From an uncultured candidate division Zixibacteria bacterium (lineage in GTDB: Bacteria > Zixibacteria > MSB-5A5 > UBA10806): DNA of 64,000 nt. The stretch lies in NCBI GenBank assembly GCA_963801605.1, contig CAWDFP010000007.1, positions 392,285-456,284 of the forward strand, written 5' to 3'. The notes beneath the pieces were generated by a model. It did no database searches. It was not told the origin of the DNA and saw only the letters and a program-made list of their open reading frames with translations. Made by a program: the position numbers and the translations under genes. Positions 3 through 35,082 of this stretch are shown here, one piece after another (position 1 is the first letter of the stretch; each line of letters starts with the position of its first letter).

Positions 3-452
3 GCGATCGTCAGTGGTAGGCGTAATGGCGGCGATTTGAGTCGTCGGATTATCACTGATTGAAAATACCAGTTCAAATACTCCGGCTCTAAGCCCGGCGG
101 TATTTAAAACCGGGTTGGGATCTCCACCAAGATCGGAAAATCCCAAATGTGTCGCCAGCCTATGATCTTCTTTAATACCCTGCCAATTATCATCCCAGGC
201 CTCGAGCGGCGAACCTACCTGAAACCCCATAAATTGGATATCGCCGGATGATTCGATCCTTAAGGGCAAATTGTAATGAGTGACATCCCCATCGGTAACG
301 AAATAAACCGGCACTGTAACTTGAGTTTGTCCGGGGTTAAAAGTGGCGGTCCCTATGATGACGCTATCGGCGTTGTCGACTAAAGTACCACCTATCGCCG
401 GAAATGAAATGCACAAGATAATTGCTATCCCCAGCAACAATCCATATTTCAT
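3..452 (-). CDS. Secreted cohesin-like domain protein, truncated by the window edge; paralog of 605..1450
   Basis: Not in the ORF track. ATG at 452 follows a GGAGG RBS. Translation MKYGLLLGIAIILCISFPAIGG...DSVIIGTATFNPGQTQVTVPVYFVTDGDVTHYNLPLRI...HLGFSDLGGDPNPVLNTAG...FELVFSI aligns by eye with the N-terminal domain of 605..1450. Confidence 0.75.
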   Translation of the reverse strand, partial: MKYGLLLGIAIILCISFPAIGGTLVDNADSVIIGTATFNPGQTQVTVPVYFVTDGDVTHYNLPLRIESSGDIQFMGFQVGSPLEAWDDNWQGIKEDHRLATHLGFSDLGGDPNPVLNTAGLRAGVFELVFSISDNPTTQIAAITPTTDDR

Positions 453-551
453 CGTTCCTCCTTGGAAAGGTTTTTTTGCAGTAGATTAATGTCTTTAACA
501 TTTTTTACAATATTTAGCGGGCAGATGTTCCCCAAGATGCCGGAAATATCG

Positions 552-580
552 AAAAAAAAAGGCAGGCATGGCTGCCTGCC
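552..580 (-). terminator. Rho-independent terminator after the 605..1450 gene
   Basis: GGCAGGCA-tggc-TGCCTGCC hairpin next to an A9 run, which is a U tract on the minus strand. Confidence 0.85.
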
Positions 581-604
581 TCAAGAAAACCTTAGAAAAG
601 GAAT

Positions 605-1450
605 TTAGCGGACCAGAACCATTTTATTGGTTTGGGTGAAATCAGACGTATATATCTTGTAGAAGTATATGCCTGATGGCACGTTAGCTCCGTTATCATT
701 CTTGCCATTCCAATGGGCGATATGATCGCCTGCCGCAACCGTACCATCAACAATCGTCTGAACTTCCTGGCCAAGCAAATTGAAGACTGTCAGGGAGACA
801 TAGGTTTCCTTTGGTAAAGAAAACTCGATGTTGGTTTCAGGATTGAATGGATTCGGATAGTTTTGCTTCAGAGCATAATTGGTCGGGATTGGATTTCCAT
901 CGTCGACACCCTCGCCCGGACGGGTAATCTGCATCGGGGTTTTAACGATGACTGGAGTAATCTGAGTTAATCCGTCAATCAAGCCGAACATAGCAGAACG
1001 ATTACGGTCATCAAAAACCGTATCAATCGAAATGGTCTGCGGACGAGTACCGGGGGCGATGTTGAACCGCAAGTTCCAGCAGTTTACCCTGGCGCCGTTG
1101 GTCAATAGCGGCGGATTGTTGTGCAGAGTGTCAACGTCAGCGAAACCGATCTGCCTAATGAAACCGGTGCAAACGGAATCGAAGCGAACGTCCCAGCTAG
1201 TCAAAGGCGGGAAGTAATTAGTTTGTGAACTTGGTGTCACACCGCCTAAGGGTGCACTCCAGGTAATCGGAAGATTGTAAAACATTACTGAGTCATCCGT
1301 GACTGCCCAAAACCTGGTGGTAATAAATGTGAAACCGGAATCAATGCTCAATCCCTCAATGACAATCGTATCCCGCATGCCGGGATCCTGGGCATATACA
1401 GCGCTGCCCAGAAGCAGACATGCCGCCAAAAACAATAGCAACTTTTTCAT
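605..1450 (-). CDS. Secreted protein with a cohesin-like beta domain and a T9SS type A sorting domain
   Basis: Signal peptide. C-terminus LKQNYPNPFNPETNIEFSL...PSGIYFYKI...KMVLVR is a classic CTD. The cohesin-like call rests on the beta-strand pattern only. Confidence 0.8.
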   Translation of the reverse strand: MKKLLLFLAACLLLGSAVYAQDPGMRDTIVIEGLSIDSGFTFITTRFWAVTDDSVMFYNLPITWSAPLGGVTPSSQTNYFPPLTSWDVRFDSVCTGFIRQIGFADVDTLHNNPPLLTNGARVNCWNLRFNIAPGTRPQTISIDTVFDDRNRSAMFGLIDGLTQITPVIVKTPMQITRPGEGVDDGNPIPTNYALKQNYPNPFNPETNIEFSLPKETYVSLTVFNLLGQEVQTIVDGTVAAGDHIAHWNGKNDNGANVPSGIYFYKIYTSDFTQTNKMVLVR

Positions 1451-1633
1451 TACCGATGGCCTCCTTAATTATTATTTACTTGTTAACTTTTACTAATACT
1501 CACCCGCAATAATGGTGTTACCACATCCCATTAACCCCATCGTTCAAAATATTACGAAATAATGTCACCTTATGTCAAGTTTTTTTTGGCAGCTTAAATA
1601 TATTTTTTTATCAATAAAATGAGATAAAAGACA

Positions 1634-3031: not shown

Positions 3032-3149
3032 GGACCCCTCCGGTTTTTACTCCCCCATCATTATATATCGGCAAAATGCAAAAATATCTTGAGGATTATT
3101 ATTGGGAAATCCCCATACCCGCCCATAGAGCAGTAAAGGGGACAAGTAT

Positions 3150-4552: not shown

Positions 4553-4569
4553 GTGACTCGGAACCCGAC

Positions 4570-5607: not shown

Positions 5608-5756
5608 GAGGATTAAATATCGGATAATGTTAAGCAAGTCAAATTAAAATTGAAGAATAGTTATGATGTCGGATCATGTTAAGTTTGTAAGCGGCCAACC
5701 GCTGACCCACAACGGGTAATTAGCAAAAAAATGTCAAAACCAGCAACGGGTTTTGA

Positions 5757-12580: not shown

Positions 12581-12583
12581 TTT

Positions 12584-14620: not shown

Positions 14621-14890
14621 AATATTCCCCTTGCCCCTTCCTGAATTTGATTATCGACAGAATATTGGCATAGTTAAGGGAGCAATGAACTTGACAATTA
14701 AAATCCGTTAAAATAATATGGATATGTATGGGCAGGAAATTGGACTACTTTTTCGCAAATTCAATAACAAATTCCGTTAGAAATTCAATATTAAATCGAT
14801 ATTTTGAATATTTTTGGGGACTCCGGGTATCAGTATGTGAGGTATATGCTCATGGATGGTTACCCGTTGGGAATGATAAAAGCGGCCTGG

Positions 14891-16409: not shown

Positions 16410-18483
16410 CTATCTCAATGGTGGAGGGCAATCGATGCAGTAGTGAAGCGCTCCTCCGCGCCTGAGGTAATTGACCAGATAGATAATGTCCAGGCCGTCG
16501 ACGCTACAACTGCCGTTGACATCGGCGCTAACCTCCATGGCTCCGTAGGAGGCACAACTGCAGGTTTGCAGGGAATTATTGCCGCCCAGGAAATAGCGCA
16601 CCAGATAGCTGACATCAAGGCCATTGGTGATACCGTCACCGTTGATGTCGCCGGCTCCATACTGGCATCCCCCCTGCGTTACAACCATGCTGACGGGGAT
16701 ATCGAGAGAAAGATTATTTTCGTCGTTGGTGCGAAGCTTCAGGATAACATCATAAGTACCGTCGGAAAGGCCCTCGCTGTTGAAAGAAAGGCTAACCGCC
16801 TGGTTTCCGCCAGCAGGAATGGGGCCTTCATGCGGATCGATACCCAGCCATGAAAACGAATTGCGGCCTCCCATATAAAAAGCGGTTGCAAAGTTGCTGT
16901 GTATATAATTGGAGTTGTAAGCAACCTGCAATCCGATTGTGCCTAATAGATTTTCGATACCTACCGAGCACTCGTTAAGCCGTCCCGGACCCATGTTGGC
17001 GTATTGATAAATGATCGTATCGGGGGCAATCATAATAATCTGGAAGGTGAATGTCCCGGCCTGGCGGGTATCTTTAACATTCTGCCAGGTGATAATAGCC
17101 GAATCCGATTGGTTGGAGTAGAAATAGATATTGCCGCCATATTGAAGAGTAAGATCGTCATAAAATACGGCCATCAGGTTGTTGGGCAACGCCTGGTCGG
17201 GAATAGCAACGTTATCCGGAGTATAGAAATAGGCATTCATAAAGTATGCGAGGCCGTTGACGCTAACCTTCACATAGCTATACTGGTGATCGTAGAAGTT
17301 GAAGTTAAATCCCAATTGCTGGTTGGCCGAGACTCCATCATTGGGATCATTTAAGCTGAGCTGCTGCCCGACCTGAGTGATATCTTTCCAATTATAAATC
17401 GGTCCGCCAGAGGAGTCACTACTGCGCCAATAGTAACCAAAAGCATCCTGCCCGCCGGCCGGCGCCGCCAGCAAATCGTAGCGCATTTCGCCGCTTGCCG
17501 GTATTAATGAGGTTCAAGGTTCTGGTTCTCAGGGCATGATCAGGCAGATCAATTGAGAAGGATTCCGGATCATATACGAGCGCCGGCAAACCGCCTTCTC
17601 GATAGATTGGCCGTTGAGTATAATTTCCGAACGAGGCCGAACCGTACTGGATATAGAAAAAGCCGTGCATTCCCCAGCCCGGGCCCCAGCTATTTTTAAC
17701 TATCCAGGCGCCCTGTCCATCGCACATATTGTCATCCCATCCAACAATAAGTACGGCATGATTAATGGGCTCCCCGCCGGCATGGGAATAACAGCCGCTG
17801 CGATAACCGTAAAAATCATCATAAACGGTAAACGTGGTGGATAGCGGTCCATACATCAGGGCATTTTTAATGGCGTTAACATTATTAGCCACATCCACAA
17901 ATCCAATGATATTGGCGATTGGCTGGCATTGATCCTGAGTGCAGGGGATTTGATCATCGCCACCGTAAGGCATACAAGTTTCAGCGACTGCGCCGTAATC
18001 AATGAAGAGGTTATAAGCATCGCTCATCCAACCGCCCCGACAACTGGATGTTCCGCTGTTGCAGGAAAGAACCTGCTGTTCGGAAAAATCGGGGACGCTA
18101 TCCTCGGCAATGATATAAGCAGATTCAAAAGCGGCAGTAGCGGCAAAAGCCCAGCAAGAACCACATTGGCCCTGATCGGTGACCGGTGAGACGCCACCAA
18201 GATCACGCCAATCGAAATGGCTCTCGGTATTAAGAAGAGTCGGCGGCGCAGTGCTATCGAGTTGAGCGAAACGCTGTTTGACATATTCAGGAATTATGAC
18301 ACCGAGCCTTTGATGACGTTCTTCCAGCGTCAAATCCATCATGGAGGTCTGATCGGCGGTCCAGCTCAGGCCGTTGTCCTCAATATATTTTTGGATTTGC
18401 AGAACTTCCTGCGAAACCTTGGCGTTGACGGGAGACCAAATAAAAAGAATGGCCGCAAACAAAATGCCGGCAGTAGTACGCAT
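16410..18483 (-). CDS. Secreted C1 (papain-like) cysteine peptidase with a NIDO-like domain, an Ig-like domain and a C-terminal dockerin; frameshift near 17495
   Basis: QGQCGSCWAF, NHAVLIVGW and WIVKNSWG give the catalytic motifs. The second frame ends with GDINGDGITNGLDVSYLVRY...ADVNGSCSVDGLDIIYLVNY. Confidence 0.88.
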
Positions 18484-18573
18484 CGAGTACCTCCAATTGG
18501 TATTTCGTAAACTCACGCCATAAACTTACATAATAATAAGGTTTTGTCAATTAAAGATATTGCCTGGCACTAT

Positions 18574-18628: not shown

Positions 18629-19342
18629 TTATTGGATTTGCCCGACCCTAAATTGCCCCGGTTTACCTAAAATCGGGATACAATTGCCTCTATGGGGATT
18701 ATTGCCGCTGCCTCGAAGGTAAAGCAGAAGATAGTTGACATCCAACCCGGAAACATCGCAGCTTCCATTGCAATCGGCGCGCAGAAATGGTTCGGGTGGC
18801 GTTGGGCCGCCCTTAAAATAGTTAACCAAATATATCACGTCTACACCGTCAACACTCCCGGAGTTATTAACATCACCCGGAAGAAAATAGGAAGGATCGG
18901 CGGGAGCGGAGGTTTTTAGCGGTGAATTGGAAAGAGGCGAACAATTGCCGTCATCATCATAAGCTTTGATGCAAAAATAGTAGCTGGCTCCGGGATCCAG
19001 GCCTCTGACCAGCATCGAATCTATCTGGCCGCTTAAGCCTGGCGCCGGCACTCCGCCGATTTGGATCGACCGATTCCATTGTCCTTCGTTATCAATCGGT
19101 CCCTGATCGGCCGGGATGCATCGCAAATCATAATATGCGGCGCGGCCAATATCACCATCATCACCGGTCGCAGTCCAATGCAAGATTACATCTCCGGGAA
19201 TAATTTCTAATGCTAAAACGGGAGAATCGAGTTTAGTTTGAGGGTTTCCAGTCGCTGCCAGGCCGTTCTTTTGCCCCGCTATTAGAATCGAGCCTGCAAT
19301 TAAAGTACTCGCAATCAGCCATCTGCCGCTAAGGTACTTCAT
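18629..19342 (-). CDS. Secreted fibronectin type III-like plus dockerin protein
   Basis: LHWTATGDDG..G.A..YDLR...GLDPGASYYFCIKAYDDDGNCSPLSN (Fn3), followed by two Ca-loop dockerin repeats. Confidence 0.85.
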   Translation of the reverse strand: MKYLSGRWLIASTLIAGSILIAGQKNGLAATGNPQTKLDSPVLALEIIPGDVILHWTATGDDGDIGRAAYYDLRCIPADQGPIDNEGQWNRSIQIGGVPAPGLSGQIDSMLVRGLDPGASYYFCIKAYDDDGNCSPLSNSPLKTSAPADPSYFLPGDVNNSGSVDGVDVIYLVNYFKGGPTPPEPFLRADCNGSCDVSGLDVNYLLLYLRGSGNNPHRGNCIPILGKPGQFRVGQIQ

Positions 19343-20053: not shown

Positions 20054-21798
20054 TTACTGCTCAAGATCGGTAGAAAGCTTATAGCGCAAAATACGATTAT
20101 TGCCGGTATCAGCAACGTACACGGTACGGCGATCGCCGAAGATATCGTAGGTGATTCCGCCTGGTGAACTCATTTGAATTGCCATCTTAAATTTAAGGGC
20201 AAATCCGTTACGAATGCCGGTAGCCGGAGTCGTCAGGCCCTTGGAACCGTTGGGGCTTTCGATACCCACTGTAGCAGAATCTCCCCATCCGGAGGAGCTT
20301 TTATACTGGAATACAATGGAGCTATCAGCGGGATTTAAGATAAGCTCGAAAGTTTTGCCAAGGGTATCGGCAGTATTTGGTACGTTGTCATACTGGATAA
20401 CGAAGAGATTGGAGGCTGGATCGTGCCAATAATAGATCCCCGATGATGTCACCGACGGGTCTAAAGCCTCTCCGAAAACGGAAAGAACGGCGTTGGGAAG
20501 AACAGCGTTCGGAATTACCGGGGCGGTGGGCAATTGTGCAAGAGGAAGGAAACTGCACCAACCGTTCGAAGTTATGCTGATGCTATCATAATTAGCAGTA
20601 TAGAAATTAAAAGCTCTTCCCATTGGAACGCGGACAGAGGAGTTTGGCAGAAGACCGGTAGCAGTACCGGCTCCACCCTTTTGAGGATTGATTTCAATCC
20701 AGTTGTAGGTTAAGCCTTCATTATCATCGATACTAATCATCGAATATAACTGATCAATCGGCTTTAGGAGCGCGCCCTGCTTGGAGAATTTGACGGCGCC
20801 CGCATATCTGTCGGGGCCGCCATCAACTACATAGATATTGCCCTGAGGATCGACAGTAGCGCCTTTGGGACATGCTGAAAAAGCCACGGCGCAACAGATC
20901 GGTTTCGGACGGACTGTGAGTGTAGTTAAAGACCCAATGTCTGATCCCAAACCTGACGTTCGCAGCGTAAGATCGTGAACCGGGATAGCTTCCTGAATCC
21001 TGGCAGACAATAAGATGAGTTGCACCAGAGAGCTGGTAGGCATAGATAGAGTTGGGGAGTGTGGTGGTGGTGACGCCGTTGCCGGTAATAACGATGGGAT
21101 TAATTAAAGTATCACCAACGACGCCCAGCTAAGGAGTTCATGATTAGTCGAGTCAACTCCAAAAATCCGGTCAAGGAGGGAATCAGCATTCTCTCGATTA
21201 TCACCGAATCCCCGGAACCATAGTACGCGGCCGTTATTCATGCGATTTGACGAGACGGCCACAAAATAAGTTTTATCATAGGCCGGAATATCGGTTATCG
21301 ATATAAATCGGTCAGTCGAATCGATCATAGCATGATGTTTGACGCGAGTAGTATCGTTATAGGGAATATTGATCGTAATCGAACGCAACTTTAGGAATAC
21401 CGTCTCCGCCGGGGCCAACATCAATTTTATAAACCTTCTTCTCCCCCGTTACCACCAGCAGCCGCATGAGCTCGTCCTGAGCTGACAGAAATCGGGTTAT
21501 TGATGGCATATTCGGCCCGAATCGTACCGGCGGCGTCAAGCTGCAGGATACGATTGTTACCGGTATCGGCTATGTAGAGGTAGGTATCATGTCCAAAATA
21601 GATGCAGGTGGGACGTGAGAAGTTGTAGCCGTGAGCGGCGTCCCAGGGCGGATTGAGCATCAGATATAAAGTATCACCAAGGTTACCCGTCGGCGGAACC
21701 TCAGTTGGAAGTTTCATTTTTTCCCCGCAGGCGAAAACAATAGCCAGAACGAGCAAAATCAGAGGCAGTACCCAGCGTCTATTCACTAAAAGCTCCAT
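20054..21798 (-). CDS. Lipoprotein with NHL beta-propeller repeats and an inserted NIDO-like domain; about 4 frameshifts
   Basis: Lipobox IVFA-C. YIADTGNNRI, IYVVDGG and VYVADTGNNRI repeats. Pieces join across frames near 21480, 21365, 21125 and 20870. Confidence 0.7.
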
Positions 21799-22779
21799 TG
21801 TAAGGAAAATGTATTGGAGTTACCCAGATCGCCTACAGCGGCGTAAGCATAGTCGAGGCTGCTCTTGGTGGAAAACAGATCGAACTTCAGTCCCAAACCA
21901 ACTGAATAGCTCTGGGTATCGTTGCTTAACTTATAACCGCCCCGAAGAAAAAGGCTTTTATTTAAGCCATATTCGGTGCCGAATGAAAAGGACTCGGCAT
22001 TATCGGTGGGGTGATCGAGTTGAACCGAAGCCTGCCAGGCGTTATTTTGATTACTCATAATATCGGCGGCCACTCCGATTCTAAAAACGGTCGGAGGAGA
22101 AAACGATTGATATGATTTGGGAATTATTTCGCCGGAGGGATTGGTATAGTTATACGAGCCGCCCGGCTTGACCTGCTGGCCAAAATTTGAAAGAGTAACC
22201 GAAAAACGGGTATTATGATAGTTAGTTTGGTAGTAAGTCCCGAGATCGAGCAGGAAACCTCGCATTCTCAGGTTCTCCAGGCTCTCCTGGGCAAATTTCG
22301 CGGTGGCTCCAAATGAGAAGAAGTCAGTCAGGCGCTGACAGAAACTCAAGCCCACGGCCATATCGGCGAAACCAAACTTGTCGCCGGTACCATAAGGATG
22401 ATACTCGTCGGTGACATTCATATCGGGCGTTCCCAGATAGAGGAAACTGACTCCCACCGCGCGATCATCGCTAAGTTTCATGCTGTAGCCGGCGTAGTCG
22501 TAACTGACATCAACCACCCACATATTATGCGAGAGAGCGACCATGTGAGATTCGCCCCAGACCATGGTGGCAGGATTCCAGTACAACCCGTAACCGTCCT
22601 CGCTGGCACAAGCGACAGCGTTACCCATAGCGGCCGCCCTGGCGCCGGCCCCAAGCTTGAGAAATTGCATGGCGGCGGTTCCGGAGCGAGCGGCTCCCAA
22701 ACGCGGCAGTATATTCCAGGCCAATGCCAGCGACTGGCGCCAGAAAGGCGATAATCAGAACGCAGGCGAATGCCTTCAT
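21786..22779 (-). CDS. PorV/PorQ family outer-membrane barrel; frameshift in the signal peptide near 22735
   Basis: FLKLGAGARAAAMG, LYWNPA, LDLGTYY, LFLRGGY, LDYAY, C-terminal aromatic WSF. ATG at 22779 (MKAFACVLIIAFL) is in another frame. Confidence 0.85.
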
Positions 22780-22781
22780 CT

Positions 22782-25536
22782 TTACCATGAGAAGGACACC
22801 CCCATCTTAACATTTCTTGGGTTAAGATACCTGGCAGGATTGAAAGGAAACGGAGTCAGCGGCGATGGATCGGGGTTCAAGGGATCGTTCCAGGTATCGA
22901 GGACGGGATCGCCATACTCGTAGGCCCGTCCGGTTAAAGGATTGATAATATCGGAGTTTTTATCGTTGAATAAATTGGTGATCTCGGCAAAAACAGAAAA
23001 ACGTAATCCCATCGGACGGAAAAATTTCTTAATGCTGAAATCAACCCAGTGCCAGGTTTGCGAAAGCCCGGAGTTAGGGTTCAGATTATTGGCTATGTAT
23101 TGAACCTGCTCACCCTGCCTCTCAATCCTGGTGTAGGTGGTATATCTCTTCCCGGACTGGAAGAAGGATCTCAAATAGAAGTCCCAATCGGAGGGCAACG
23201 TTAGGCCAAAGACATTATAGTGATCTTTGGGGCCGGCGTATAAATTTAAATCCAGCGCCAGGCGCAAGGGGCGATCCCAGGAGAGATAATTTTCCTTAAT
23301 CGATCTTTCAGCAAGCTGTCCTCTGGCGACCAGAAGCTCATCTTTGGGAGATGAGGATTTGCCGGTAGCAATTGAATAGGACCCGGTCAGATCGGCCGTG
23401 AAAAATCTGCCGGCTCGCTTTTTATATTCTATTTCAAGACCTCGTGAACGGGCATAATCGAGATTGAAATACATGAGGTAGGACTGGGTGCTGGTTCGTC
23501 CGGTTTGAGTAATTTTGAGAGCGGCGATATAATCGAAAATATCGCGGTAATAAGCGGTCACGGTAAGAACATCGTTGGTGGTAACTTCATAGCGCAGATC
23601 CAAGCTCATAGGATACCGTAGTTTCGGGATTGAGATCGGGATTGCCAAAGAGCTGATAGGTGGATTGCGAAATGGAATTCAGCTTGGCATAAACTCTTTG
23701 CGGCTGGGGCAGCTTGGAAAAATGGCCGTAAGAATAGAAAAGCATGGCGTTATCGAGAATCGGGTGCGAGATGCCCAGTCGCGGCGAGAGATGGGCTTTG
23801 CCTCGCAGACCAAACATATCGAAAGTATTTTTATAATAGGATTGCCGTAAGGCCGGAGAAACAATCAACGAATCCTGTACGGCGCGATCGACGTATTTCC
23901 CGGGGAACCACCAGTCGAATCTCATACCGAGATTGACGATCAGACCCGAGGATGTCATTTTATTCTGAACGTAGGCAGCTCCCGATGATGGATAGACCCG
24001 ATAGATATCGTGATTCAGACCCAATCCGGTCTGGCCTGACCAGGGCTGAATGATATCGACCATTTGCATGGTTTGGATATTTTCCTCGATACCGGATTTT
24101 AAGAGGTTCTTCTCCCCCAGACTCTTGGTAAGATCACCTTTGAGAGTATACTGTTCGAAAAAGTGATCGTGCCAGGTATCGCCATCACCATAATCGTAAA
24201 AACCGTCACCTGTAGTGACAGTATAAGCGACTGTATCAAGGCCGTGCTGGGCGTTGGGCTGAGTGATAGGAAAATAATTAATCGGGACCATATCGATAGG
24301 CTGATTATAGGCCAGCCAGTGCTTGCCGCCAACATCGCTGTGAAGCTGAGTAAAAAATCTCGACAAGCGCATTTCATAAAAGAAGGTCGGTGAAGTGGTG
24401 TGAGTCCAGGTAAGCGAGGTTTGATTGGAAATTCTGGTCTGGGTATTGTAATGATCCAGATTATACTGGTATTGATAAGGATAAGAATTGAAATCCGGCT
24501 GCGGATTTTCAAACTCATTGGCCGAGAAACCCTGATCTATATTAGCAGAGCCGCTCGTGGAAAATACCAGTCTGCGGGTCGGAGAAAAATCCCATATCGC
24601 CTTGAACAACCCGGAATAGTTATTTGAACCCCGGGGCGCATATTTATGGCCGCCGAAAATCGATGAATACAGATTATTGCTGTGGGGCAGGTAAGTATTC
24701 GAAAGGAGACCATAACCTGAAGCGAAGAAAGACCCTTTTTTGCCGGTTAATGGAATCGGCCCCGACAGAGAGATCTCGCCAACATCGGAATTATAATTAG
24801 TCAGGCCGATCTTATCGGTTTTGTAAGTGAATTGTCCTTTCAATCTTTCGGAGCCGCGCTTGGTTTTAACCTCGATAACCCCGGACATCGATTGCCCGTA
24901 TTCGGCGTTGAAACCTCCGGTTAAAACCTCAACTTCCTCGATGGAATTTGCGGAAAGCATCAAGCCTGATGTCCCGCCCGAGAATGGGTCCTGAATCGAA
25001 AGGCCATCGATGAGATAGGAGTTTTCGTAAGCTCGGCCGCCTCTGATATGAATTTCATTTTTCTCGGCGACCACGCCGGGCTGATTGCGGATGAGATCGG
25101 TAACATTTTCGATGACCGAAGCCTCGATTTCTTTAGAGCCAATGGTCTTCTTTGATTCGGTCGATTCGATATCCAGCATGGGTTTCTCACCGATGACGAC
25201 GATATCGGTGCCAAGAGTGAGCACGCTGCTTTGCAACTTATAATCATTGGTAAGCTGGGAGGAATCGTTAACCACCAGGCCGTTACGCTGGATAACTTTA
25301 TAACCGATGAGGCTTATTTCGAGGTTATAGGTTCCCTCTTTGACACCGCTGACACGATAATTACCGTTGGGATCAGTCGCCGCGCCGTAATAGGTGCCCT
25401 TAAGCATGACATTGGCTCCAGGCAGAGCCTCACCATTTGTGGCGTCAGTGATCTTGCCTTGAAGGGTGTATGTCTTTTGTGAGAGGGCCAGCGCCGGGAA
25501 TAAAACGGCCAGCAATATCAGTCTAATAAGCCGCAT
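22782..25536 (-). CDS. TonB-dependent receptor with an N-terminal CarboxypepD_reg-like domain; frameshift near 23600
   Basis: GKITD..NGEALPGANV, plug IHIRGGR..ENSYLIDG..GGFNAEYG, SPRLGISHPI, GNPDLNPETTVSYELG, C-terminal NLFN...PRNVKMGVSFSW. Confidence 0.9.
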
Positions 25537-27022
25537 GTCCGAACTCCTGTTGGATTACATATCTTAACAAACTTTCAAAGTGCCCCGAACACAGATAAAG
25601 CTCCATCGAAAAATAGACGAGCTGGGCCGGTCCGGCAGCCGGATATTTGGCCGCGACAGTATCAACCCTGGTCGGAGTGGCATCGGCGCTTTGAGTATAG
25701 AGCGCCTGGACGCTACCTGGCATAAGACCGCTGGGCGAACCCGGCTTAAAGCCATAGGATTTGGAAAGCGGGTAGGAAGGAAAACCCGGTTCATTCGAGG
25801 CAAGCGTATCGGGGTAACCCGCAGGAGCGCTGCCGACCCTAACGATTCGGAAGCTTCGGCCAATACGAGGCGCGGTGACAGTATCAATTGGCAGGAAGGG
25901 ATAAATGACGGTATCACCTTCATAACGTTGAGTCGAGAATGCCAATAGATGACCGCCCGATGCCAGATATCTTGTAATGGATTCGGAAGCATCTTTAAAA
26001 TGAGGATAGGAACCGCCGTGCCAGATGATCACATCGAACAGCTTTAAGGTCTCCTCGATATCACGAGGATAATAGCTGAGCCTGTCAACGGTCACCCAAT
26101 TGGAATAATTATTGGCGCCATAGATATGCGTTAATGAGGAATCGATATCTTTGTCAATATCGGATGCATAGCGATCATCATCTATGAACAGAGCGCTACC
26201 GACCACCGGCATCACATTCCATTGTCCGGTCGTATCGGGATAATAAACGATGTTGGAGAAAGCGCTGGCGACGTCATGACATCTCAAGAAGAACCTGTAG
26301 CTGCCGGGCTGGAGATCGTTAAAAATCTTAAAGGTTCGGAGCGAATCCAGATGTACCCAGTTGGGCGAGTTGAGGAAATCATCCTGCCAGAAAATACTGT
26401 CATGAGGCGGAGTAGTCGGAGTGGCGGGCAGATGTATGATGCTATCGATAGGCATCGTGGCCGCATCGGCCAGATAATAATCATAACCTGTTATGGTGGC
26501 ATCACCATCAGGATCGCTTCCGGTCCAGCCAATCGAAAAATATGAGAAGCTGTTATAGACGTTGCCAGAGTAGTTGCGAACAAAATCAATCGGGAATTTT
26601 ACAGACGGCGGCGTATTCATCACCGGGAAGGATAAATGAGCCGGTGAGGGATCGGTCAGACCGTCATCATCGATGGCCCTAACCTCGAATGAAAAAGTGT
26701 CGTGAGGCACTCTGATGGGGACAAGGAAGGTGTCGGTGACAACCGTTGTAAAAGTCCAGCAAGTATCGCAACTGAAGCTCCATTTGTATTGGTAACCAGC
26801 CACTTCGCCATCGGGATCATCTCCGTACCAGTGTAATACCTGCATACTGGCAGATTCTCCCGGAAGCTGCAGAGTATCCGAAAAGAAAAGATACAGATGC
26901 GTATCCGGCGGAAGGTTAGTGTTCGGCTTGGTGGTACGATCAGTTGAGCAGGCAAAGAGTATTGCCAGCAATATCAAACTGATCGCGGCCCACCTGCCCC
27001 AAAATGTTTTAAAAGGTAGCAT
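25523..27022 (-). CDS. Outer-membrane lipoprotein with two Ig/Y_Y_Y-like domains and a C-terminal alpha/beta domain
   Basis: Lipobox ILFA-C. Repeated W.G.DPDG....Y.Y and F.VRA.D motifs. Function unknown. Confidence 0.7.
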   Translation of the reverse strand: MLPFKTFWGRWAAISLILLAILFACSTDRTTKPNTNLPPDTHLYLFFSDTLQLPGESASMQVLHWYGDDPDGEVAGYQYKWSFSCDTCWTFTTVVTDTFLVPIRVPHDTFSFEVRAIDDDGLTDPSPAHLSFPVMNTPPSVKFPIDFVRNYSGNVYNSFSYFSIGWTGSDPDGDATITGYDYYLADAATMPIDSIIHLPATPTTPPHDSIFWQDDFLNSPNWVHLDSLRTFKIFNDLQPGSYRFFLRCHDVASAFSNIVYYPDTTGQWNVMPVVGSALFIDDDRYASDIDKDIDSSLTHIYGANNYSNWVTVDRLSYYPRDIEETLKLFDVIIWHGGSYPHFKDASESITRYLASGGHLLAFSTQRYEGDTVIYPFLPIDTVTAPRIGRSFRIVRVGSAPAGYPDTLASNEPGFPSYPLSKSYGFKPGSPSGLMPGSVQALYTQSADATPTRVDTVAAKYPAAGPAQLVYFSMELYLCSGHFESLLRYVIQQEFGHAAY

Positions 27023-29012
27023 TTACTTTAAAAGCACCATTCTTTTGGTATCCGAATAGTCTTTGGTTTCAAGTTTATAGAAATAAACACCGCTGGAAAC
27101 TTTATCGCCCGCGGCGTTGTCACCGTTCCATTCAACATTATGCTGGCCCGGTTGGAGCTCCTGATTCACCAGACTGGTGACCTTCTCCCCCATGATATTG
27201 TAAACGGATAGGTTGACATGGGTCTTCTCTTTCAAATTGAAAGAGATCATTGTGGAGGGGTTGAACGGATTGGGATAGTTCTGCGATAAGGAATAATTTT
27301 CGGGAACGGCTACATCCTGGTCAACTCCGACAATCCACATGAAATCGGTGTAGAACCTGGGCATAAGCTCATAATAGCTATTGAACGGATCGGAGTAATC
27401 GTATTGGCTTAAAACACCCACGATATTGGCTCTGTTAGCTCCCTGAGTCTGGCCATCGATATCGGTCGAAAGATCGATACGCAAGGTGGCGCTGTCAGTA
27501 TCGACAATAGTCATGGTCGCCGATGAACCCAGCGGCGGCCAGGGATTGGGAGTCGGCAGCAACTGGACGTTGTTCAGACGCAACAGGGTTCCCTCATAAG
27601 TTTCGCCAACTATGTCACCGAGGGCGCCACAGGTTACAACCATCGTATCAGGTATATGGCCGGGTCCGTTGAGGGTAATGCGGTTACCTCTATAGGCTAC
27701 AACTCGGGTCTTACCGTAATACTGCTGGATGATACCATTGACAGTGATGGAATCACCGGGATTAACCATTATCTGAGTGGAATCGAAATATACCTCGATA
27801 CCGGCATGGGCTTGTTCCATGTAGAAATCGGTCTGGCGGGTGTTGAAGTTAGGTGACACCGCGATACCAGTGACGATCACGGCGCTATCCAATAGATCGG
27901 GGATGAAATCAGCGTTAGCGTCGATCCTGGCCTGAGCGATTGTCAGGGTACGAGGCTGCTGCACATGATACTCATGGAAGCTAAACGGGGCCTCATAAGG
28001 TTCATTAGTGACGTTATTGGAATCATCGACGGCGCGAACATAATAGTCAACGTTCCATCCGGCGACCGGCGATGGCAAGGTGAAGGTATAATTATCAGTA
28101 TTTGGCACATGCGTCATAGGAACGTTGGTCCAGCCGCCGAGATTAATTCGATAAACGAGTCTGACGCTGTCCTGCGGAAGCGGTTCGTCGTCAACCGCAT
28201 AGGCGGTGATAGTAACAGGATCGTTAACCAGAGGATAGGTCGGCGAATTGGATACGGTTACGATAGGCGCTCCGCGCGACAAGCGTAAATCTCTCATATA
28301 GCGCGGTTGAAGGCTGTAGATTCCAAAACGATGATAGATGACGCCCTGTACGAAATCAAATACGGTGCCGCGGGGTGGACGGAAAGAATTGGGGATAGAA
28401 TCAGCGGCTTCTCTAACGCACATACGGTGGCCGGTCGAATCATGACAAATCCAGGTGGAAGTTGTGGTATAATTTATAAGTGAATCGACGGTAAGTCCGT
28501 GAACGGAAATAAATACTCCCTCATATTGTTCGGCGGCAGAATCGGCGCCGGCAGTAGAATCGAGATCGGTGGCGCCGACTATCAGCGCTGGAGGCTCGGG
28601 CATACCATAACTTCTAAATTGAAACGAACTGGGGATGATTAGAAGTTCGGTCATGACATCATACTCCGGAGGAGGAAGCGAGGCATATTCGCTAACTAAC
28701 GGCAGTGCATAGGATTGAATCGCCGGGGACGAGAGTGGGATAGCCCTGCGCGCTGGCGCTATAGGCCATTATCCCTGACCAAGGGCCACCGGTAGGGTTT
28801 TCCATATAAAATGTAACACCCGTTCCAGCGTAGAATGCGCCCGTGCCGCAGGTAATCAGGCCTCCGGTAATTACGGTGTCGCCTGCAAACCTGGAACTAT
28901 CCTGGCCAACCGGCACCCACTGAATGCTGTCGATAGGCACGGTTGGGTAACTCAGTGCCAGGGCAGGAATCAGCAGCACCGCTGCCAAAAACAGAATCGT
29001 TAGCACTTTCAT
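27023..29012 (-). CDS. Secreted protein with two YhcR/ExeM-like OB-fold modules, an Ig-like domain and a T9SS CTD; frameshift near 28692
   Basis: Signal peptide. FYME...SGIMAY..PGDSI...EY...TEL...EQYEGV...LQPR..DL occurs twice. C-terminus LSQNYPNPFNPST...SSGVYFYKL...KRMVLLK. Confidence 0.78.
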
Positions 29013-29024
29013 AATTTTTCTCCT

Positions 29025-31150
29025 TTATTTAATTACTACGAATCTTCCTCTTGAAACATCACCCGAAGCCAAATCTTCAACGGTAAAAAGATACATACCC
29101 GTGGCGAGCGCCTGATCGGCTTTGGTTACTAAATCCCAGGCGTGGATTCCACCTGAAAAGACTACATCTCCAGCGGCATATTGACTGAACCAGGCAACGT
29201 CGGCGCCGGTATAGGTGGCGCCGTCATGATCGATGGTGTCAACCAGGTCGCCGGCCAGCGTATAGATACGGATCGTACAGCGATCCGGGAGATTGGCGAA
29301 ATAAAGAAGCCTGGCTCTCTCCTGAACACCATCATCACCCTGACCATCCCAAATAGCGTTGGCTTTATAGGGATTGGGAAATACGGTAACTTCCCTCTTA
29401 GTATCTGCCTGTGAACCGGGAAAAGCCCTGCTATAACTTAAGAGGACTCCTGATTCCAGGCTGGGAAGGTTGTTGGTGGGATCGCCCATATCGAAAGCGG
29501 TGACGGCAAATGCATATTGCCAGCCGTTAAGCAATTGATCATTAGTGAATTTATAATAATAAGCATGACCATCCAAAGTTTCCGGTTGAGCCAGCTTGAT
29601 AAAATCGAGGCCGGTGTTATATCCCACCGAATCGTTTCTGTCGAACTGAGCAATTAGCTCGAAAAGTTGTTTGAGACCCGTATTCTGATTTTGCTGAGTA
29701 ATGCGGGCGCGATAAATCTTGTAACCCTCGAAATCGGTTTGCCCGGTAACGGGATCGATGAAGCTCTCGGGAGAATTATCCCAATAAACATCGACTTTAC
29801 CATCACCGGCGACAAGTTTCATGACGGGCGGCGGCGGAGCTTCCGGCAAAAGATAACGATCTATGCGATGGTTATAAGGCGGAAGGTCCTCGCCGGGATC
29901 GAGCCTGCCATTGCCATTTTTATCCTCACCGTTATAAGAGATTTTAGCCCAGCGTGAATTGGTGAATAAATTGAACCTGGATAGCTCGGTGTCATCTTCC
30001 ATACGATCCGGACCATACTTATTGGCGCAAACCACAGCAAATACAAAATTGATGGAATCACCCGGAGCCAGATCGGGAAAAGGCCCGGTGGCCAAAAGCA
30101 TAGAACGGTTGAGCGGACCCTGAGCGGCGATATAATCACGCCAACCATTAATAGTATTGAGGCCGGTTGTCATGTGCTGGTAACGCTCGGAGTCGTATTG
30201 CGGCATGAAAAGGACCGGGTCCTGATTATTCTTAAAAATCCATTCGTAGTAACTTGTCCGGGATAAATATGATTGCCCCGAATCGGGATCAATGGCGGGA
30301 GTAGTGCCTAATATTCTGAGTCCGATATAGCTTTGGGCATACCCGAAATCGCCGTCATAATCATATTCGTAACCCATCTGGAGAGAATCTATATAATTGT
30401 TGCCATCGTCGGTATAACGCCAGGAAGATGTCGGACCCCATCCCCCCGGAGGATTTAAGTCGGTGTTTCCGACCATGGTATCGACCCAATAACCTACGAA
30501 TGGTTCCTGGATGACATCGCTGCTCGTATTTTTTATCGTAAAATCAAGAATGACATAAGCGTCAGCGAAAGATTGGCTCCAGGCGTAGCTCCTCTGAGTG
30601 ACAGTAATCCCAGGGGACGATGATCAGGAATTTCCTCGCCTGTTTGCGGAATTACGGAGTTGGAATCGGTATAGGTACAAATAAAATCCTGGTGGCTGAT
30701 GGCGTTGGGATCATAATAAGGCGAAACGGGCAAGAGCGATCGTTCGATAATTGAATCTCCCGGAGAAGTGTGAATCTCGCCGGGCACTCCGTAACCGGTG
30801 GTAAATTCAAACCCCGAGGCCGCGCCATTGGGTTTGCGGGAAACATCAATTGCCCCGGTGGAAACGCGGATCTCGTTATTCTTGAGTCCGCCGACCCAGA
30901 GGCCGCCCATATACATGTGTTCGACATGGGAACCTATGGGATATTCGCAGGAGAGCCGGCCGCGTTCGGCAAATCCCAATCCCATCGTACCGTAATTGGT
31001 TATTACCAGGCTGATGTTGCCAACATTAACAGTATGGCGTTCGTCATCATCAGCTTTGAGAATGGAGGGAAAAGTAATTATAATAGATATTATAATCGCC
31101 AGGAATAATATTGGCACACGATAAAAAATAGCGGCTTTGACAGTTTTCAT
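29025..31150 (-). CDS. Secreted protein with an Fn3-like domain and a variant T9SS-like CTD; frameshift near 30610
   Basis: HTVNVGNISLVITNYG, EYPIGSHVEHMYMGGLWVG, DFEGYKIYR, YAFAVTAFD. Terminal VFPNPY...FANLP..CTIRIYTLAGDLV...WDLVT...ATGMYLF..RFVVIK. Confidence 0.75.
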
Positions 31151-31324
31151 TTTTTAGCTCCGCGCTCGGAGTCCTATTCAATTTTTTAAAAGATGCTCAG
31201 TAAATCAGACAGTAATATTGATTCACCCGAGGCCCCCATTCGCTAACAAATTATAACTAAAGCATCTACACAATAGCAAGGGGATTTTTCCAGACTCAAG
31301 ACTCGAAACGAATCTCACTTGCCA

Positions 31325-31360
31325 CAAAACAAATCGGGCTCCTCAATATGAGGAGCCCGA
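31325..31360 (-). terminator. Probable terminator after the 1232-aa gene
   Basis: Perfect 12-bp stem TCGGGCTCCTCA-ata-TGAGGAGCCCGA followed by TTTGTTTTG on the minus strand. Confidence 0.75.
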
Positions 31361-31383
31361 AAAATTACTTGTTCCGGTTACAA

Positions 31384-34300
31384 TTATTGCGCGTTTTGAG
31401 TATCAACTTTGGGTTGAGGCGCAACCAGCGGAGCAAGATCAACAATAGGCAAGCAGTCGGGGCATCCATGAACCATCGGACCACCCTTGAAGTAGCTCAC
31501 CATGTAGGTAACATCGAGACCGTTGAAGGAACAGGACGCATTAACGTCACCAGCGACAAACCAGGTATGACCAGGTGTGCACTCGCAGGAGTACGGCGGA
31601 GGCGGACCACCCTTGAAGTAACCAACTGAATAAGTTACATCAAGACCATTGAAAACATGGCTATTGTTGGCATCACCTACGGCATAATCGCAGCCTGTCG
31701 GCGATTCCAGCATGGTAGCGTTGACGTTAGTTGTCTGGTCGGCTGTTACAACGATATTGTTGATAATGTTGTTAACATAACCGGCTTTGCTCAGATGTTC
31801 GTGGTAAGTAGCAGGCGGAAGCAACAGACTCCAGGTACCTCCGACACCCGAGAGATTGTTACCAACCTCGACCTCGGCGGCGTTATGAGTAATAATGGTC
31901 ACACCTTCCAAGGGAGTTGTGCCGTCATGATCATAAACTATGCCGGCGATTGTGCCTTCCGGTCCAGCGCACCAAACTGATGACGAATTAAAGTCGGCAT
32001 TAGTACGCGGAGAAATGCGGAAGAAGCTGTGTTCAAATCTATAGACACCAGTGATTCCTCTGATGCGATCACCGAGAACCGGCACGTAGGTGTATCTGGT
32101 CCACAATCCATTCTTAACGACCATTAGGGATTCAGAAGGATTGGTCAGGCTATGGATAATCCAACCATAAGCGTCAAAAGCGGTATTGGTAACAACGAAG
32201 GAATCGCAATCGGTAACCAAATCGCTTTCATAATACTCGCCATGCGCCATCAGGTCGCTGGTCGCAATCTGATATGGTATCGGCGCGGGACCGGTGCCAA
32301 CGATTTGCATATTTCCATAGACGCTGACATCGCTAAGCTCAGTTTCCTGGAAATATTCGATGGCTTTACCAGTCGCAATAATCGTATCGCCGACGACAGG
32401 ACGAGGAGTGACGCCGCCGACATACATGTGGATGCCTCTGTATGGAGGACCGCTTTGGTCATATCCAAATATGTTGCTTGGCTGACTGGTTGTAGAATCA
32501 GAGGTAACAACCACCTTGGAAGTAAAGATATCGCCGATATAGATAGTTGAATCACCGCCGGCACTTGGAGTTTGAACTACTGATATCGAGGTAATTCCCG
32601 AATGGTACAGTTTGTAGTGCGGGGTTACCATGCAAACATTGACGCTATCGCAAACGCCGTTGACGATCAGGGAGTCGATTGAATTATTGGGCTGAGCTGC
32701 GGTAGTTAAAATCGCCTTGCGGTTGCCAGATGCAGCAGCGCCAAGAATCGACAGGCCGTGGACGGTCGAATAGAAGCTCGGATTGGAAATCGAGGTAGTA
32801 TTCATGGCTCTATCGAAAGTTACGGCTAATTGGGTATTGTCGATCGGCCAAACTGCGACAATGTTAGGCTCGGGAATAATTCCGATTTGGTAATCGGAAC
32901 CAGATCTCGGCATAAGTATCCAGCCCTGAACGTTGGGCGAGGTTGTTCTACCTTCCCAGCGAAGAACACCGATAATGTAGTCGTAAACGCCACCCGTAGA
33001 AGGAAGCGGGCTGGGAATGTTGGTTCCGCCGACCCACATATCATCGTCAATTCTGATTGAATCGGTGGAGGTATTGTCCCTGATCCAATATTTACCGTCG
33101 AGCTGGCTACCGGCCGAAAGAACGGTAACATTGTTGATTCTGATCAACTCGCTCTCCAGCGGCTCGGTTGAGTAATCGCATTTAAGAGCAAGTGTGGCGA
33201 CGGTAACAATACTGGTATCGGGTAGCGGCTGGCTGGGACCGAGTACCGTGAACGATTGAATGGTATCAAGTTCGGTCCAACCGTAGTATTCGTTTATAAA
33301 GCCATTTACCTGAACATAATCGCCGACATGGGCGTTAACAGGATCGCCGTTGGGAAGAGTATAGTCGTAGGAGTAGAGGCCGCCCCAGGCAGTATTGCCC
33401 TGATCCTGAAGATAGAAAGTGCCATAGGTGGCTTGCCGGACGGCAGTCACGATACCGCATACGGATTGATAGGTGCCGGCATACGGAGACGGCCAGCAAT
33501 TATCGCCGGTACCGGGATCGAGTGAATTTTCGAGCGTGAAAATATTCATACCGGTGCAGACGGTTGGAGCGGTAAAGAGATCCGCTGAAGTGCGCGGCAT
33601 GATTCTATAACGGCCGTAAGTGTAGCGGCCGATACCGCGAATGTAGGTGTATTGATGATTCATCTGGAAGACGCAGGAATCAACGCCGCCCAGAGAAAGA
33701 TCGTTAGAGACGATGCAGGTATCGCCAGAACCGTCAATACCCAGGAATTCGCCATTATCAGGACGAGGCAGGGTATCGATTAAGGTGATGTTATTGATCT
33801 GAATGATCATGCCTTCGTATGGTTCGGCGGTGGCGCTGCAACTATCGAGACCGAGTGTGGCGCAGGTTATTACGTTCGGCGCCGGCAATGTATGGCCCGG
33901 AGAGTGCTTGGTAAGCACGGAGACCGGACTAAGCTCTGTTTCAGCGTAATATTCACCCATAATACCGGTAACGGTTACGCTGTCGCCGACCTGAACCGTA
34001 TCGATCGATTGATAAACGTATAATCCCGACCAGGGAGTTGTAGCATCCTGGAGGAAGAATCTCATATGATATCCGGCGGTCGATCGTTCATATCGTCCGA
34101 CCACTATTCCGGTTACGGTTTCGCCCATTCCGAGTGAATCGGTGGGGAAACAATTTGGCAGAGTCCCTTGCACCGTGGTATGTTGAACGCTGTAGATCGG
34201 CACGTAGGGCGTAGCATAGCCAAAAACAGTATAGGTGAAAGTTTGTGATTGGCTGCGTCCACCGTCATCGTCAGTGGCAACCACATAGTAGTTAACAATC

Positions 34301-35082
34301 GTTCCTGCGGGTTGGAAGCCAATATGAAACCAGCGATCATTCCCGCCGGTGATACTGTCATGAGGCGCCGCAGTGAATGTTCCACCGTTAAGCTGGAGAT
34401 ATAAGCTGTCGGAAACGACAGTGCCGTCAATATCCTGAATAGTAGACTTGACGTTGACAAAAGTGTCGGGGTAAACGTTTCCGGCAGGTATTCTTACGGT
34501 CGGGCCAACAACGGGAGGCGTATTGCCCTGGGGAACCTGACCCCAAAGAACAACATCGTCAACCCAGATACTGTCTCTACGGCCGTAGACGCCGCCGTAG
34601 AATCTCAATTGAACAGTCAAACTTGTAGAATTGTATCTGGCGGTATCTGACCAGGTATAGAGCGTCCAATTATCAATATCAGTTGAATAAGTGGAGGGGC
34701 CGCTGCTTCCTGACGGTGAGAAGAAGAACCAAACGCGAACGCGCGGATTATTTATATCGGGAGTGTAATCGTAAACCCATAAGCTGCAGGAATAAGTGGT
34801 TCCGGGAACAACTGGTATGGGCGCGTGATCTAATCTGAGTGTGCCTGAAGAATCATAAACAACTTTAACGCTGTAAGTTCCGGAATGAACTCGTCCGGTT
34901 TCCTGCAAAGCGCTGATACGCGGAGTGGCAAGTGTCCAATTATCGGGCGGACCGCCTGGACCGTTGTTATTCCATAATTCCATACCCCCATTGGCCATTA
35001 CCTGCTGGTCTTGGGCAAGCGCCGGTACCCAGGCAGATATAAGAACAATCGGGATAAGTAGCCACAGTAGATTTTTTTTCAT
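31384..35082 (-). CDS. Large secreted protein: CBM-like domain, Ig-like domain, three OB-fold modules, CarboxypepD_reg-like domain and a dockerin
   Basis: Signal peptide; NGGMELW...PDNW (CBM4/9-like start); three repeats of V.GIV...F.LQD...GLY.Y...VGD.V.V.G...EYY..TEL...E.YE...PR...D; terminal GDANNSHVFNGLDVTY / GDVNASCSFNGLDVTY. Confidence 0.82.
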   Translation of the reverse strand: MKKNLLWLLIPIVLISAWVPALAQDQQVMANGGMELWNNNGPGGPPDNWTLATPRISALQETGRVHSGTYSVKVVYDSSGTLRLDHAPIPVVPGTTYSCSLWVYDYTPDINNPRVRVWFFFSPSGSSGPSTYSTDIDNWTLYTWSDTARYNSTSLTVQLRFYGGVYGRRDSIWVDDVVLWGQVPQGNTPPVVGPTVRIPAGNVYPDTFVNVKSTIQDIDGTVVSDSLYLQLNGGTFTAAPHDSITGGNDRWFHIGFQPAGTIVNYYVVATDDDGGRSQSQTFTYTVFGYATPYVPIYSVQHTTVQGTLPNCFPTDSLGMGETVTGIVVGRYERSTAGYHMRFFLQDATTPWSGLYVYQSIDTVQVGDSVTVTGIMGEYYAETELSPVSVLTKHSPGHTLPAPNVITCATLGLDSCSATAEPYEGMIIQINNITLIDTLPRPDNGEFLGIDGSGDTCIVSNDLSLGGVDSCVFQMNHQYTYIRGIGRYTYGRYRIMPRTSADLFTAPTVCTGMNIFTLENSLDPGTGDNCWPSPYAGTYQSVCGIVTAVRQATYGTFYLQDQGNTAWGGLYSYDYTLPNGDPVNAHVGDYVQVNGFINEYYGWTELDTIQSFTVLGPSQPLPDTSIVTVATLALKCDYSTEPLESELIRINNVTVLSAGSQLDGKYWIRDNTSTDSIRIDDDMWVGGTNIPSPLPSTGGVYDYIIGVLRWEGRTTSPNVQGWILMPRSGSDYQIGIIPEPNIVAVWPIDNTQLAVTFDRAMNTTSISNPSFYSTVHGLSILGAAASGNRKAILTTAAQPNNSIDSLIVNGVCDSVNVCMVTPHYKLYHSGITSISVVQTPSAGGDSTIYIGDIFTSKVVVTSDSTTSQPSNIFGYDQSGPPYRGIHMYVGGVTPRPVVGDTIIATGKAIEYFQETELSDVSVYGNMQIVGTGPAPIPYQIATSDLMAHGEYYESDLVTDCDSFVVTNTAFDAYGWIIHSLTNPSESLMVVKNGLWTRYTYVPVLGDRIRGITGVYRFEHSFFRISPRTNADFNSSSVWCAGPEGTIAGIVYDHDGTTPLEGVTIITHNAAEVEVGNNLSGVGGTWSLLLPPATYHEHLSKAGYVNNIINNIVVTADQTTNVNATMLESPTGCDYAVGDANNSHVFNGLDVTYSVGYFKGGPPPPYSCECTPGHTWFVAGDVNASCSFNGLDVTYMVSYFKGGPMVHGCPDCLPIVDLAPLVAPQPKVDTQNAQ

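Follow-up and report, generated by a model that had tools for sequence, protein, structure and literature searches.

Type IX-tagged cohesin-fold proteins and dockerin-tagged proteins in Zixibacteria: a candidate surface-tethering system outside the cellulosome

The window analyzed here is a stretch of 64,000 nucleotides (G000:C7:392285-456284) from the genome of an uncultured Zixibacteria bacterium (3.06 Mb, 14 contigs, 86.9% complete). This genome is designated G000, and the other G labels denote phylum genomes with which it was compared (151 in the phylum set). The window encodes two adjacent proteins that combine a cohesin-fold domain with a type A C-terminal domain (CTD) of a type IX secretion system (T9SS), as well as three secreted proteins that end in a dockerin, all located on the minus strand at the positions listed in Table 1. 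Frameshifted genes are numerous in G000. They were judged by comparison with orthologues and look like assembly errors, because the orthologues are whole. The gene of the papain-family (C1A) protease is split by such a frameshift near position 17495, whereas its orthologues from the same genus (G151 and G106) are single frames of 717 and 694 aa, dockerin included. Sec leaders were judged by eye throughout. Reversed-frame decoys gave no match at E<=0.05 with any of the dockerin, cohesin or CTD hidden Markov models (HMMs).

Table 1. Cohesin, dockerin and OB-repeat operon genes of the window (positions within the window; class A is the main, nearly always C-terminal dockerin class).
Feature	Position	Strand	Remarks
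Single-cohesin + type A T9SS CTD protein, 281 aa	605..1450	-	leader 1-20; cohesin-fold domain ~917-1390; CTD 608-871
Tandem cohesin-like paralogue	3..452	-	N-domain matches family HMM, E 5e-45; CTD just beyond window
C1A (papain-family) protease, C-terminal piece	16410..17486	-	class-A dockerin 16428-16667; Dockerin_1 32.7 bits
C1A (papain-family) protease, N-terminal piece	17419..18516	-	leader, propeptide, catalytic domain; Peptidase_C1 E 3.4e-56
Small secreted Fn3-like + class-A dockerin protein	18629..19342	-	dockerin 18689-18889; Dockerin_1 32.4 bits
NHL-repeat lipoprotein-like gene, in pieces	20054..21798	-	last gene of the operon
PorV/PorQ-family outer-membrane barrel	21786..22724	-	NF033709 205.6 bits; one of 8 over cut-off in G000
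TonB-dependent receptor, frameshifted into two ORFs	22782..25536	-	same operon
Lipoprotein-like protein	25523..27022	-	lipobox by eye; same operon
OB-repeat protein + type A CTD	27023..29012	-	CTD 27026-27292; frameshifted: 28692..29012 + 27023..28654
Secreted protein of unknown family, ~700 aa, frameshifted	29025..31150	-	between OB genes; CTD-like tail in 2/7 orthologues
Secreted OB-repeat protein, 1232 aa	31384..35082	-	class-A dockerin 31453-31692 (genome-built HMM, dockerin-fold model)

The product of 605..1450 consists of a Sec-like leader, an N-domain of about 158 aa and a type A CTD, which was recognized by TIGR04183 (E 5.9e-11; 42.2 bits against a cut-off of 23). The paralogue at 3..452 crosses the window edge, and its complete gene encodes 280 aa including a CTD; the two N-domains are 30% identical. 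A preliminary description made from the sequence had read 605..1450 as a cohesin-like domain plus a T9SS CTD with a paralogue next to it, and this was borne out. An AlphaFold2 (AF2) model of the 605..1450 N-domain, built from the homologue alignment (pLDDT 94.4, pTM 0.88), was compared with 48,161 solved chains (VIA-align, wide search). The model forms the nine-strand beta-sandwich of cohesins, and the top 20 ranks were all occupied by cohesins, in agreement with the proposed fold. The best match was 6kgc (Z 15.8, root mean square deviation 2.2 A, 139 of 144 residues aligned), and further matches included OlpA (3ul4, Z 15.5), a cohesin from Archaeoglobus (2xdh, Z 14.8) and OlpC (4dh2, Z 14.7). 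The first non-cohesin scored Z 9.4, and pilin and adhesin Ig folds were next below the cohesins at Z 8-9.

The Pfam Cohesin model (PF00963) matched neither 605..1450 nor 3..452, nor any of 114 homologues. The sequence link of the window domains to PF00963 is transitive, by iterated HMMs, and stands alongside the structural one. The window-cohesin family HMM matches C6:1732366 (E 1e-17), a protein that passes the PF00963 cut-off, and iterative HMM searches seeded with PF00963-positive sequences converge on the two window domains. PDB sequence searches with the cohesin alignments returned CTD/FlgD chains only, or nothing significant, and a profile comparison with the single cohesin at C6:278182 was not significant (probability 5%). 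Atlas feature matches (0.93) to clusters in which 13-14% of the members carry PF00963 served as a lead only. Among 130 homologues of the window cohesins the CTD motif was found in 111, a dockerin end in three and IPTL-CTERM in three, the remainder being mostly fragments. The domain is thus seen with three alternative C-terminal tags, the CTD being replaced by IPTL-CTERM or a class-A dockerin in P0027, P0058, P0089, P0041, P0053 and P0103.

The dockerins of the C1A protease tail and of the Fn3-like protein, two of the three in the window, passed the cut-off of Dockerin_1 (PF00404). The dockerin of the large OB-repeat protein contains a long cysteine linker and was missed by Pfam, but scored 9e-42 with the genome-built HMM. 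A search of the same chains with its AF2 model (pLDDT 93.6) placed dockerins at ranks 1-14 (Z 9.9), with no other fold above 2.5; PDB dockerins were also matched by sequence search at 9e-7. The model shows helices at residues 18-28 and 60-70 as well as extra conserved cysteines and a linker hairpin. No CTD was found in any of the three proteins by scans with Pfam, TIGR04183 and the genome-wide HMM. The initial view of three window proteins that end in a dockerin without a CTD therefore stands, with the protease gene split and the fn3 match of 18629..19342 weak (22.4 bits, cut-off 25). An orthologue of the latter gene occupies the same position in G152. Clustering of these genes in the window is modest. 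At least three dockerin genes were found in 34 of 540 35-kb windows of G000, and unrelated genes intervene here, so that the five genes were rejected as one locus-level system. Since three dockerins in 35 kb are unexceptional, the window is best regarded as a sample of a genome-wide system.

G000 contains 58 dockerin frames, 133 CTD frames and five frames with both. The 53 class-A frames correspond to about 50 loci after merging of split pieces, and none of them carries a CTD. Class B comprises five divergent internal dockerins, all in CTD proteins, four of which have one to three detected cohesins before the CTD. The preliminary description had proposed that dockerin and CTD exclude each other. 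This holds for class A, and fails for the five of 58 dockerin frames that belong to the internal class. With about 50 loci in G000, and dockerins in 149 of the 151 phylum genomes, restriction of the system to the five window genes was not upheld. Class-A dockerins have two F-hand loops (ligand positions 1, 3, 5, 9, and 12), each followed by a helix, as is characteristic of type I dockerins. The calcium ligands in repeats 1/2 were conserved at D1 (100/100%), N3 (98/97%), N9 (92/88%) and D12 (98/93%), and the helix-face residues at G10 (94/93%), K21 (88/86%) and G22 (90/86%). Retention of the same surface motif on both repeats in 53 unrelated frames is expected if selection acts through one partner surface.

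A Pfam scan of the cargo covered 45 of the 53 class-A frames; the remaining eight are short fragments. Eleven peptidases were found (two S8, four C25, three M14, one M28, and one C1A), four of them joined to their dockerin across a frameshift. Gingipain-like C25 peptidases are a typical T9SS cargo class, and in G000 they bear a dockerin. The other cargo includes LVIVD, kelch and sortilin propellers, a cupredoxin, a giant Ig-repeat adhesin and many unknowns. On the cohesin side, 13 cohesin-like proteins were counted: five with a single cohesin and a CTD, two with a cohesin only, one with a cohesin and a dockerin, four of class B and one weak. The cohesin-CTD proteins are about 260-890 aa long, the most cohesins detected in any frame is three, and one CTD protein of 1740 aa has a single weak cohesin match. 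A cellulosome was rejected, as no catalytic glycoside hydrolase family was seen among the scanned class-A frames, no frame exceeds three cohesins, and neither a Pfam match to CBM3 on the cohesin proteins scanned nor a long multi-cohesin scaffoldin was detected. The suggestion that the cohesin-dockerin system lies outside a cellulosome agrees with this.

The strongest evidence gathered here is the interchange of dockerin and CTD on homologous proteins. Four homologues of the C1A protease (those of G000, G151 and G106 and one copy of G152) carry a terminal dockerin, whereas 19 of 20 further loci fetched end in a CTD, the other one being cut by a contig end. In a tree of these proteins, from which L027 (contig end) and L030 (dropped by the motif filter) were excluded, the four dockerin forms constitute one branch (support 87/87, not starred) among 18 CTD forms. 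A switch from CTD to dockerin is suggested by this topology and can be put no more firmly, because the tree is midpoint-rooted. The syntenic orthologue of the OB-CTD protein has a CTD in six loci. In G152, where it is 59% identical, it has a dockerin instead; there the tag changes right after the shared body and the dockerin lies exactly in the place of the CTD. Among the dockerin-tagged bodies of G000 longer than 100 aa (n=39), a CTD-tagged paralogue was found for 27, and homology extends up to the tag for 13.

The distribution of these modules was compared across the phylum. Dockerin PF00404 was detected in 149 of 151 genomes and cohesin PF00963 in 147. G066 and G090 (94 and 96% complete) yielded no match to PF00404, PF00963 or the window-family HMM, and they contain 103 and 113 CTDs, respectively. 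The window-cohesin HMM matches 103 of the 151 genomes, but strong matches (E<1e-40) occur only in its own order, where all 11 relatives have them. As this HMM is silent in 48 genomes, it provides no co-occurrence test by itself. Dockerins of the order of the window share the class-A motif, and two dockerins of another family differ at the recognition positions.

The T9SS translocon and sortase set of G000 scored over the cut-offs, with SprA at 707 bits (in frame), PorU at 701 bits and eight PorV-family genes, and the link to T9SS made in the preliminary description is supported. The window cohesins, with leader and type A CTD, have the features of T9SS type A cargo in a genome that encodes SprA, PorV, and PorU. 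As a separate observation, this T9SS, with SprA, PorU, the eight PorV-family genes, 115-133 CTD proteins and no GldK/GldM match, possibly has a different or missing motor. Two secretins were found in G000, both in pilus-type operons, and one of them is PilQ over the cut-off. The ATPase of the second secretin operon scored 556.8 bits as PilB and 548.1 bits as GspE, both under the cut-off, which leaves this secretin between a pilus and type II secretion. This operon (L133:70-17999; G000:C6:995070-1013000) also contains several pilin-like genes, a PilM-like gene and two Big_1 proteins.

On this evidence we hold it somewhat probable that single cohesins anchored through T9SS tether dockerin-tagged cargo on the cell surface, with the dockerin likely taking the place of the type IX tag in marking proteins for surface attachment. 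The cohesin protein and its cargo would both cross the inner membrane by Sec. The cohesin protein would then exit through SprA, and PorU would remove its CTD and join the new C-terminus to a surface anchor, as we infer from the CTD cleavage and anchor-attachment chemistry described for PorU of Porphyromonas gingivalis in the accessible text of PMC5445135. A class-A dockerin, with its two near-identical calcium loops and helices, may dock on the cohesin in either orientation and in a calcium-dependent manner, as in cellulosomes. The outcome would be a set of one-to-one, non-covalent tethers and not a cellulose-degrading scaffold, because proteins as different as peptidases, propellers, OB-repeat binders and adhesins make up the cargo. 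The idea that the single cohesins scaffold one complex was accordingly abandoned.

For the passage of the CTD-less cargo over the outer membrane, the simplest guess is that it rides through SprA bound to the cohesin-CTD protein; alternatively, it could take a secretin route or use a PorV paralogue. Folded cargo would bind its carrier in the periplasm, pass SprA with it and stay tethered after anchoring by PorU. This is a tentative proposal that we consider possible but somewhat doubtful. It is plausible because SprA passes folded proteins according to the accessible text of PMC9251779. The accessible portions of PMC5445135 and PMC9251779 contain no T9SS precedent for CTD-less cargo borne by a partner.

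Several findings weigh against tethering by the window cohesins. Because their identity to solved cohesins is only 5-12% and Pfam misses them, no binding face can be taken for granted. The anchor and cargo genes are separated by about 15 kb of unrelated genes and are not co-transcribed. G071 and G138 have dockerins and no PF00963 match, G071 having a window-family match. The co-absence of both modules concerns only two genomes, G066 and G090, which are kin and may not be independent. GldK and GldM were not found in G000 (87% complete; no control genome matched GldM, and GldL and GldN were not searched), and therefore its T9SS may work differently. In three of the 130 homologues a window-type cohesin and a class-A dockerin are joined in one protein, an arrangement that makes more sense if these two modules are not binding partners. 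Finally, the presence of a second dockerin class and of 13 cohesin-like proteins in G000 implies that the window cohesins may serve other partners. In a two-tier system of this kind the window single cohesins would anchor the scaffold-like class-B proteins, and class-A cargo would dock elsewhere, on the hub at C6:276-283 kb, on cohesin-only proteins or on lipoprotein cohesins. The class-B dockerins would suit this role, occurring in five CTD proteins of which four have one to three detected cohesins; the natural fusions of cohesin and class-A dockerin look like adaptors, and clostridial systems have distinct specificities for anchoring and for cargo. However, class-B proteins bear their own CTD and need no anchor, and the window-cohesin family is expanded to 1-4 tandem copies. 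Strong matches to it are moreover confined to the order that shares the class-A motif, while the two dockerins from another family differ at just the recognition positions. We regard the two-tier arrangement as unlikely.

The exact coincidence of the dockerin with the position of the CTD might also mean that a PorV-family paralogue or a secretin system recognizes the dockerin itself as an export signal, or that the cargo is held by soluble periplasmic cohesins, with T9SS-anchored cohesins secondary or absent. Eight PorV-family genes over the cut-off, a secretin operon whose ATPase scores nearly alike as PilB and as GspE, and two cohesin-only proteins without any anchor would be in line with this explanation. 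Yet the folds of dockerin and CTD are unrelated, the CTD is kept in 111 of 130 window-cohesin homologues, and in precisely the genomes without dockerins, where CTDs are still abundant, cohesins are absent too, which makes it quite improbable. The same joint absence in G066 and G090 argues against a loss of pairing, in which the dockerin would be a terminal domain stabilized by calcium and disulfides, while the cohesin fold would serve as an adhesin domain that binds carbohydrate or matrix. The very low identity to binding-competent cohesins, the pilin and adhesin Ig folds that follow at Z 8-9 and the extra conserved cysteines and linker hairpin of the dockerin could be explained in this way. 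Cohesins nevertheless rank 6 Z units above the adhesins, and a two-fold conserved recognition motif is present on about 50 unrelated proteins, so we find a loss of pairing very improbable. Tethering of dockerin-tagged cargo by T9SS-anchored cohesins was retained as the working interpretation.

OlpA and OlpC of Clostridium thermocellum (3ul4, 4dh2) likewise combine one cohesin with a surface-anchor module, in genomes with dozens of dockerin-tagged proteins. The cohesin folds correspond at Z 15.5 and 14.7, and the window dockerin resembles their partners at Z 9.1 and 9.6. The surface-anchor module of OlpA and OlpC is the S-layer homology (SLH) module of a monoderm, in contrast to the T9SS type A CTD of the window proteins in a diderm, and the cohesins share 10-12% identity. 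The dockerin of G000 differs in being cysteine-rich with a linker hairpin, and the cargo in consisting of peptidases, propellers, OB repeats, and adhesins. Non-cellulosomal cohesin-dockerin systems have already been proposed, one with a CTD-anchored scaffoldin (accessible text of PMC8542988 and PMC6461901). In Ca. Stygibacter (Cloacimonadota) a cellulosome-like complex was inferred in silico (Williams et al., 2021; PMC8542988). As far as the accessible text goes, both systems have signal-peptide enzymes with a C-terminal dockerin, among them S8 and C25 peptidases, as well as a cohesin protein whose C-terminal domain would serve as its anchor; those authors cite a T9SS review for this domain. 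Stygibacter has one scaffoldin of 3,755 aa with tandem cohesins and carbohydrate-binding modules, GH18/GH57 cargo and a distribution in one genus, whereas the system seen here has small candidate anchors with one cohesin each, two classes of dockerin and about 50 cargo loci in G000, and a phylum-wide distribution. Swaps of CTD and dockerin between orthologues were observed here and are not described for Stygibacter in the accessible text of PMC8542988. For Nemodlikiaceae a hypothetical cohesin-dockerin assembly that would degrade peptides, the "Planctosome", has been put forward (Andrei et al., 2019; PMC6461901). According to the accessible text it is also non-cellulosomal, from a diderm, and has M14 peptidase cargo and dockerin-cohesin adaptors, but it is anchored via a lamin-tail-domain protein and no T9SS link is proposed there. 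The window cohesins share leader, type A CTD and the SprA, PorU and PorV homologues with the type A pathway of T9SS; the approximately 50 G000 proteins with a dockerin in place of the CTD would follow a route not described in the accessible portions of PMC5445135 and PMC9251779. The literature searched, which did not cover subscription papers and supplements, yielded no paper on dockerins, cohesins or type IX secretion in Zixibacteria.

Non-cellulosomal cohesin-dockerin modules are widespread and mostly unexplained; here they are carried across a candidate phylum and tied to T9SS, and the orthologues ending in either a CTD or a dockerin amount to a natural experiment. Because Pfam does not recognize the divergent cohesins, such systems are under-counted. 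If the proposed anchoring is true, the plug-and-socket of the cellulosome would be a general surface-display code able to replace covalent T9SS anchoring, and it would explain how dozens of peptidases stay at the cell surface. The T9SS field is thereby presented with the question of whether SprA can transport a protein that lacks a CTD and is attached to a tagged partner. If it does, a second exchangeable tagging code would apply to dozens to more than 100 proteins per genome in the whole phylum, and genes would switch between the two tags during evolution. The divergent cohesin family may also offer orthogonal pairs for designer enzyme assemblies.

The OB-repeat proteins belong to an operon (window 20054-35082) with the order OB-dockerin protein, ~700-aa protein, OB-CTD protein, lipoprotein, TonB-dependent receptor, PorV and NHL lipoprotein. 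This operon was conserved in 7 of 9 loci fetched. The two OB-repeat proteins of the window are 28% identical over 305 aa (E 4e-14). As originally stated they differ in their tag, dockerin on one and CTD on the other, but they are distant paralogues and the gene with the CTD is frameshifted. With only 28% identity the pair represents old paralogues and no swap; recent tag-swapped duplication was rejected for this reason and because each tag is kept in most orthologues. Among 11 homologues of the large OB protein that reach their C-terminus within the locus, 10 end in a dockerin, and the lone exception is a CTD-tagged, non-syntenic protein in the dockerin-less G066. A nuclease function of the OB protein was rejected, as ExeM/NucH matched at positions 1-110 of 546 only and no nuclease domain was found. 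The earlier proposal of a defined complex scavenging protein and DNA was not sustained, being founded only on the OB-fold similarity and the neighboring TonB-dependent receptor. The operon resembles an uptake locus that may have surface OB-repeat binders and its own PorV paralogue.

Within its order the window-type cohesin gene occupies a fixed chromosomal site, beside one particular gene for a sigma-54 regulator, in 11 of 16 loci fetched, and is present in 1-4 tandem copies. Behind the anchor gene of G106, as in G000, come dockerin genes and a gene for a cohesin alone. Past the 5' edge of the window (L001:10816-13419; G000:C7:388815-391418), a gene for LVIVD repeats plus dockerin and a cohesin-only gene come directly after the cohesin-CTD pair, and G106 keeps this order with one extra dockerin gene. 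Upstream of the cohesin genes (window 5757-14620, minus strand) there are large genes with GAF, histidine kinase and receiver domains (by eye), partly syntenic in relatives. A hub of cohesin, class-B dockerin and CTD genes was found at G000:C6:258257-282782 (L002, L006). It follows a Ser/Thr kinase-TPR-like gene (by eye) and adjoins the genes for a dockerin-tagged Ig-repeat adhesin of 2657 aa and for an S8 peptidase with a dockerin.

Among the smaller dockerin proteins of G000, two tandem frames of about 115 aa (G000:C6:961413-962143, L100) consist only of a leader and a class-A dockerin and may be cohesin blockers or placeholders. Three secreted proteins of about 180-200 aa (L092, L098 and L145, on contigs C11 and C10) have a dockerin and a short N-terminal domain that looks shared by eye; one of them weakly matches the candidate phyla radiation (CPR)-type pilus protein PamT (E 3.6e-7, far under the cut-off). 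Two tandem small secreted CTD paralogues, the first one frameshifted, are encoded in the window at 54292-56131 on the plus strand, and they start with a Cys-x-x-x-Cys-His-His motif.

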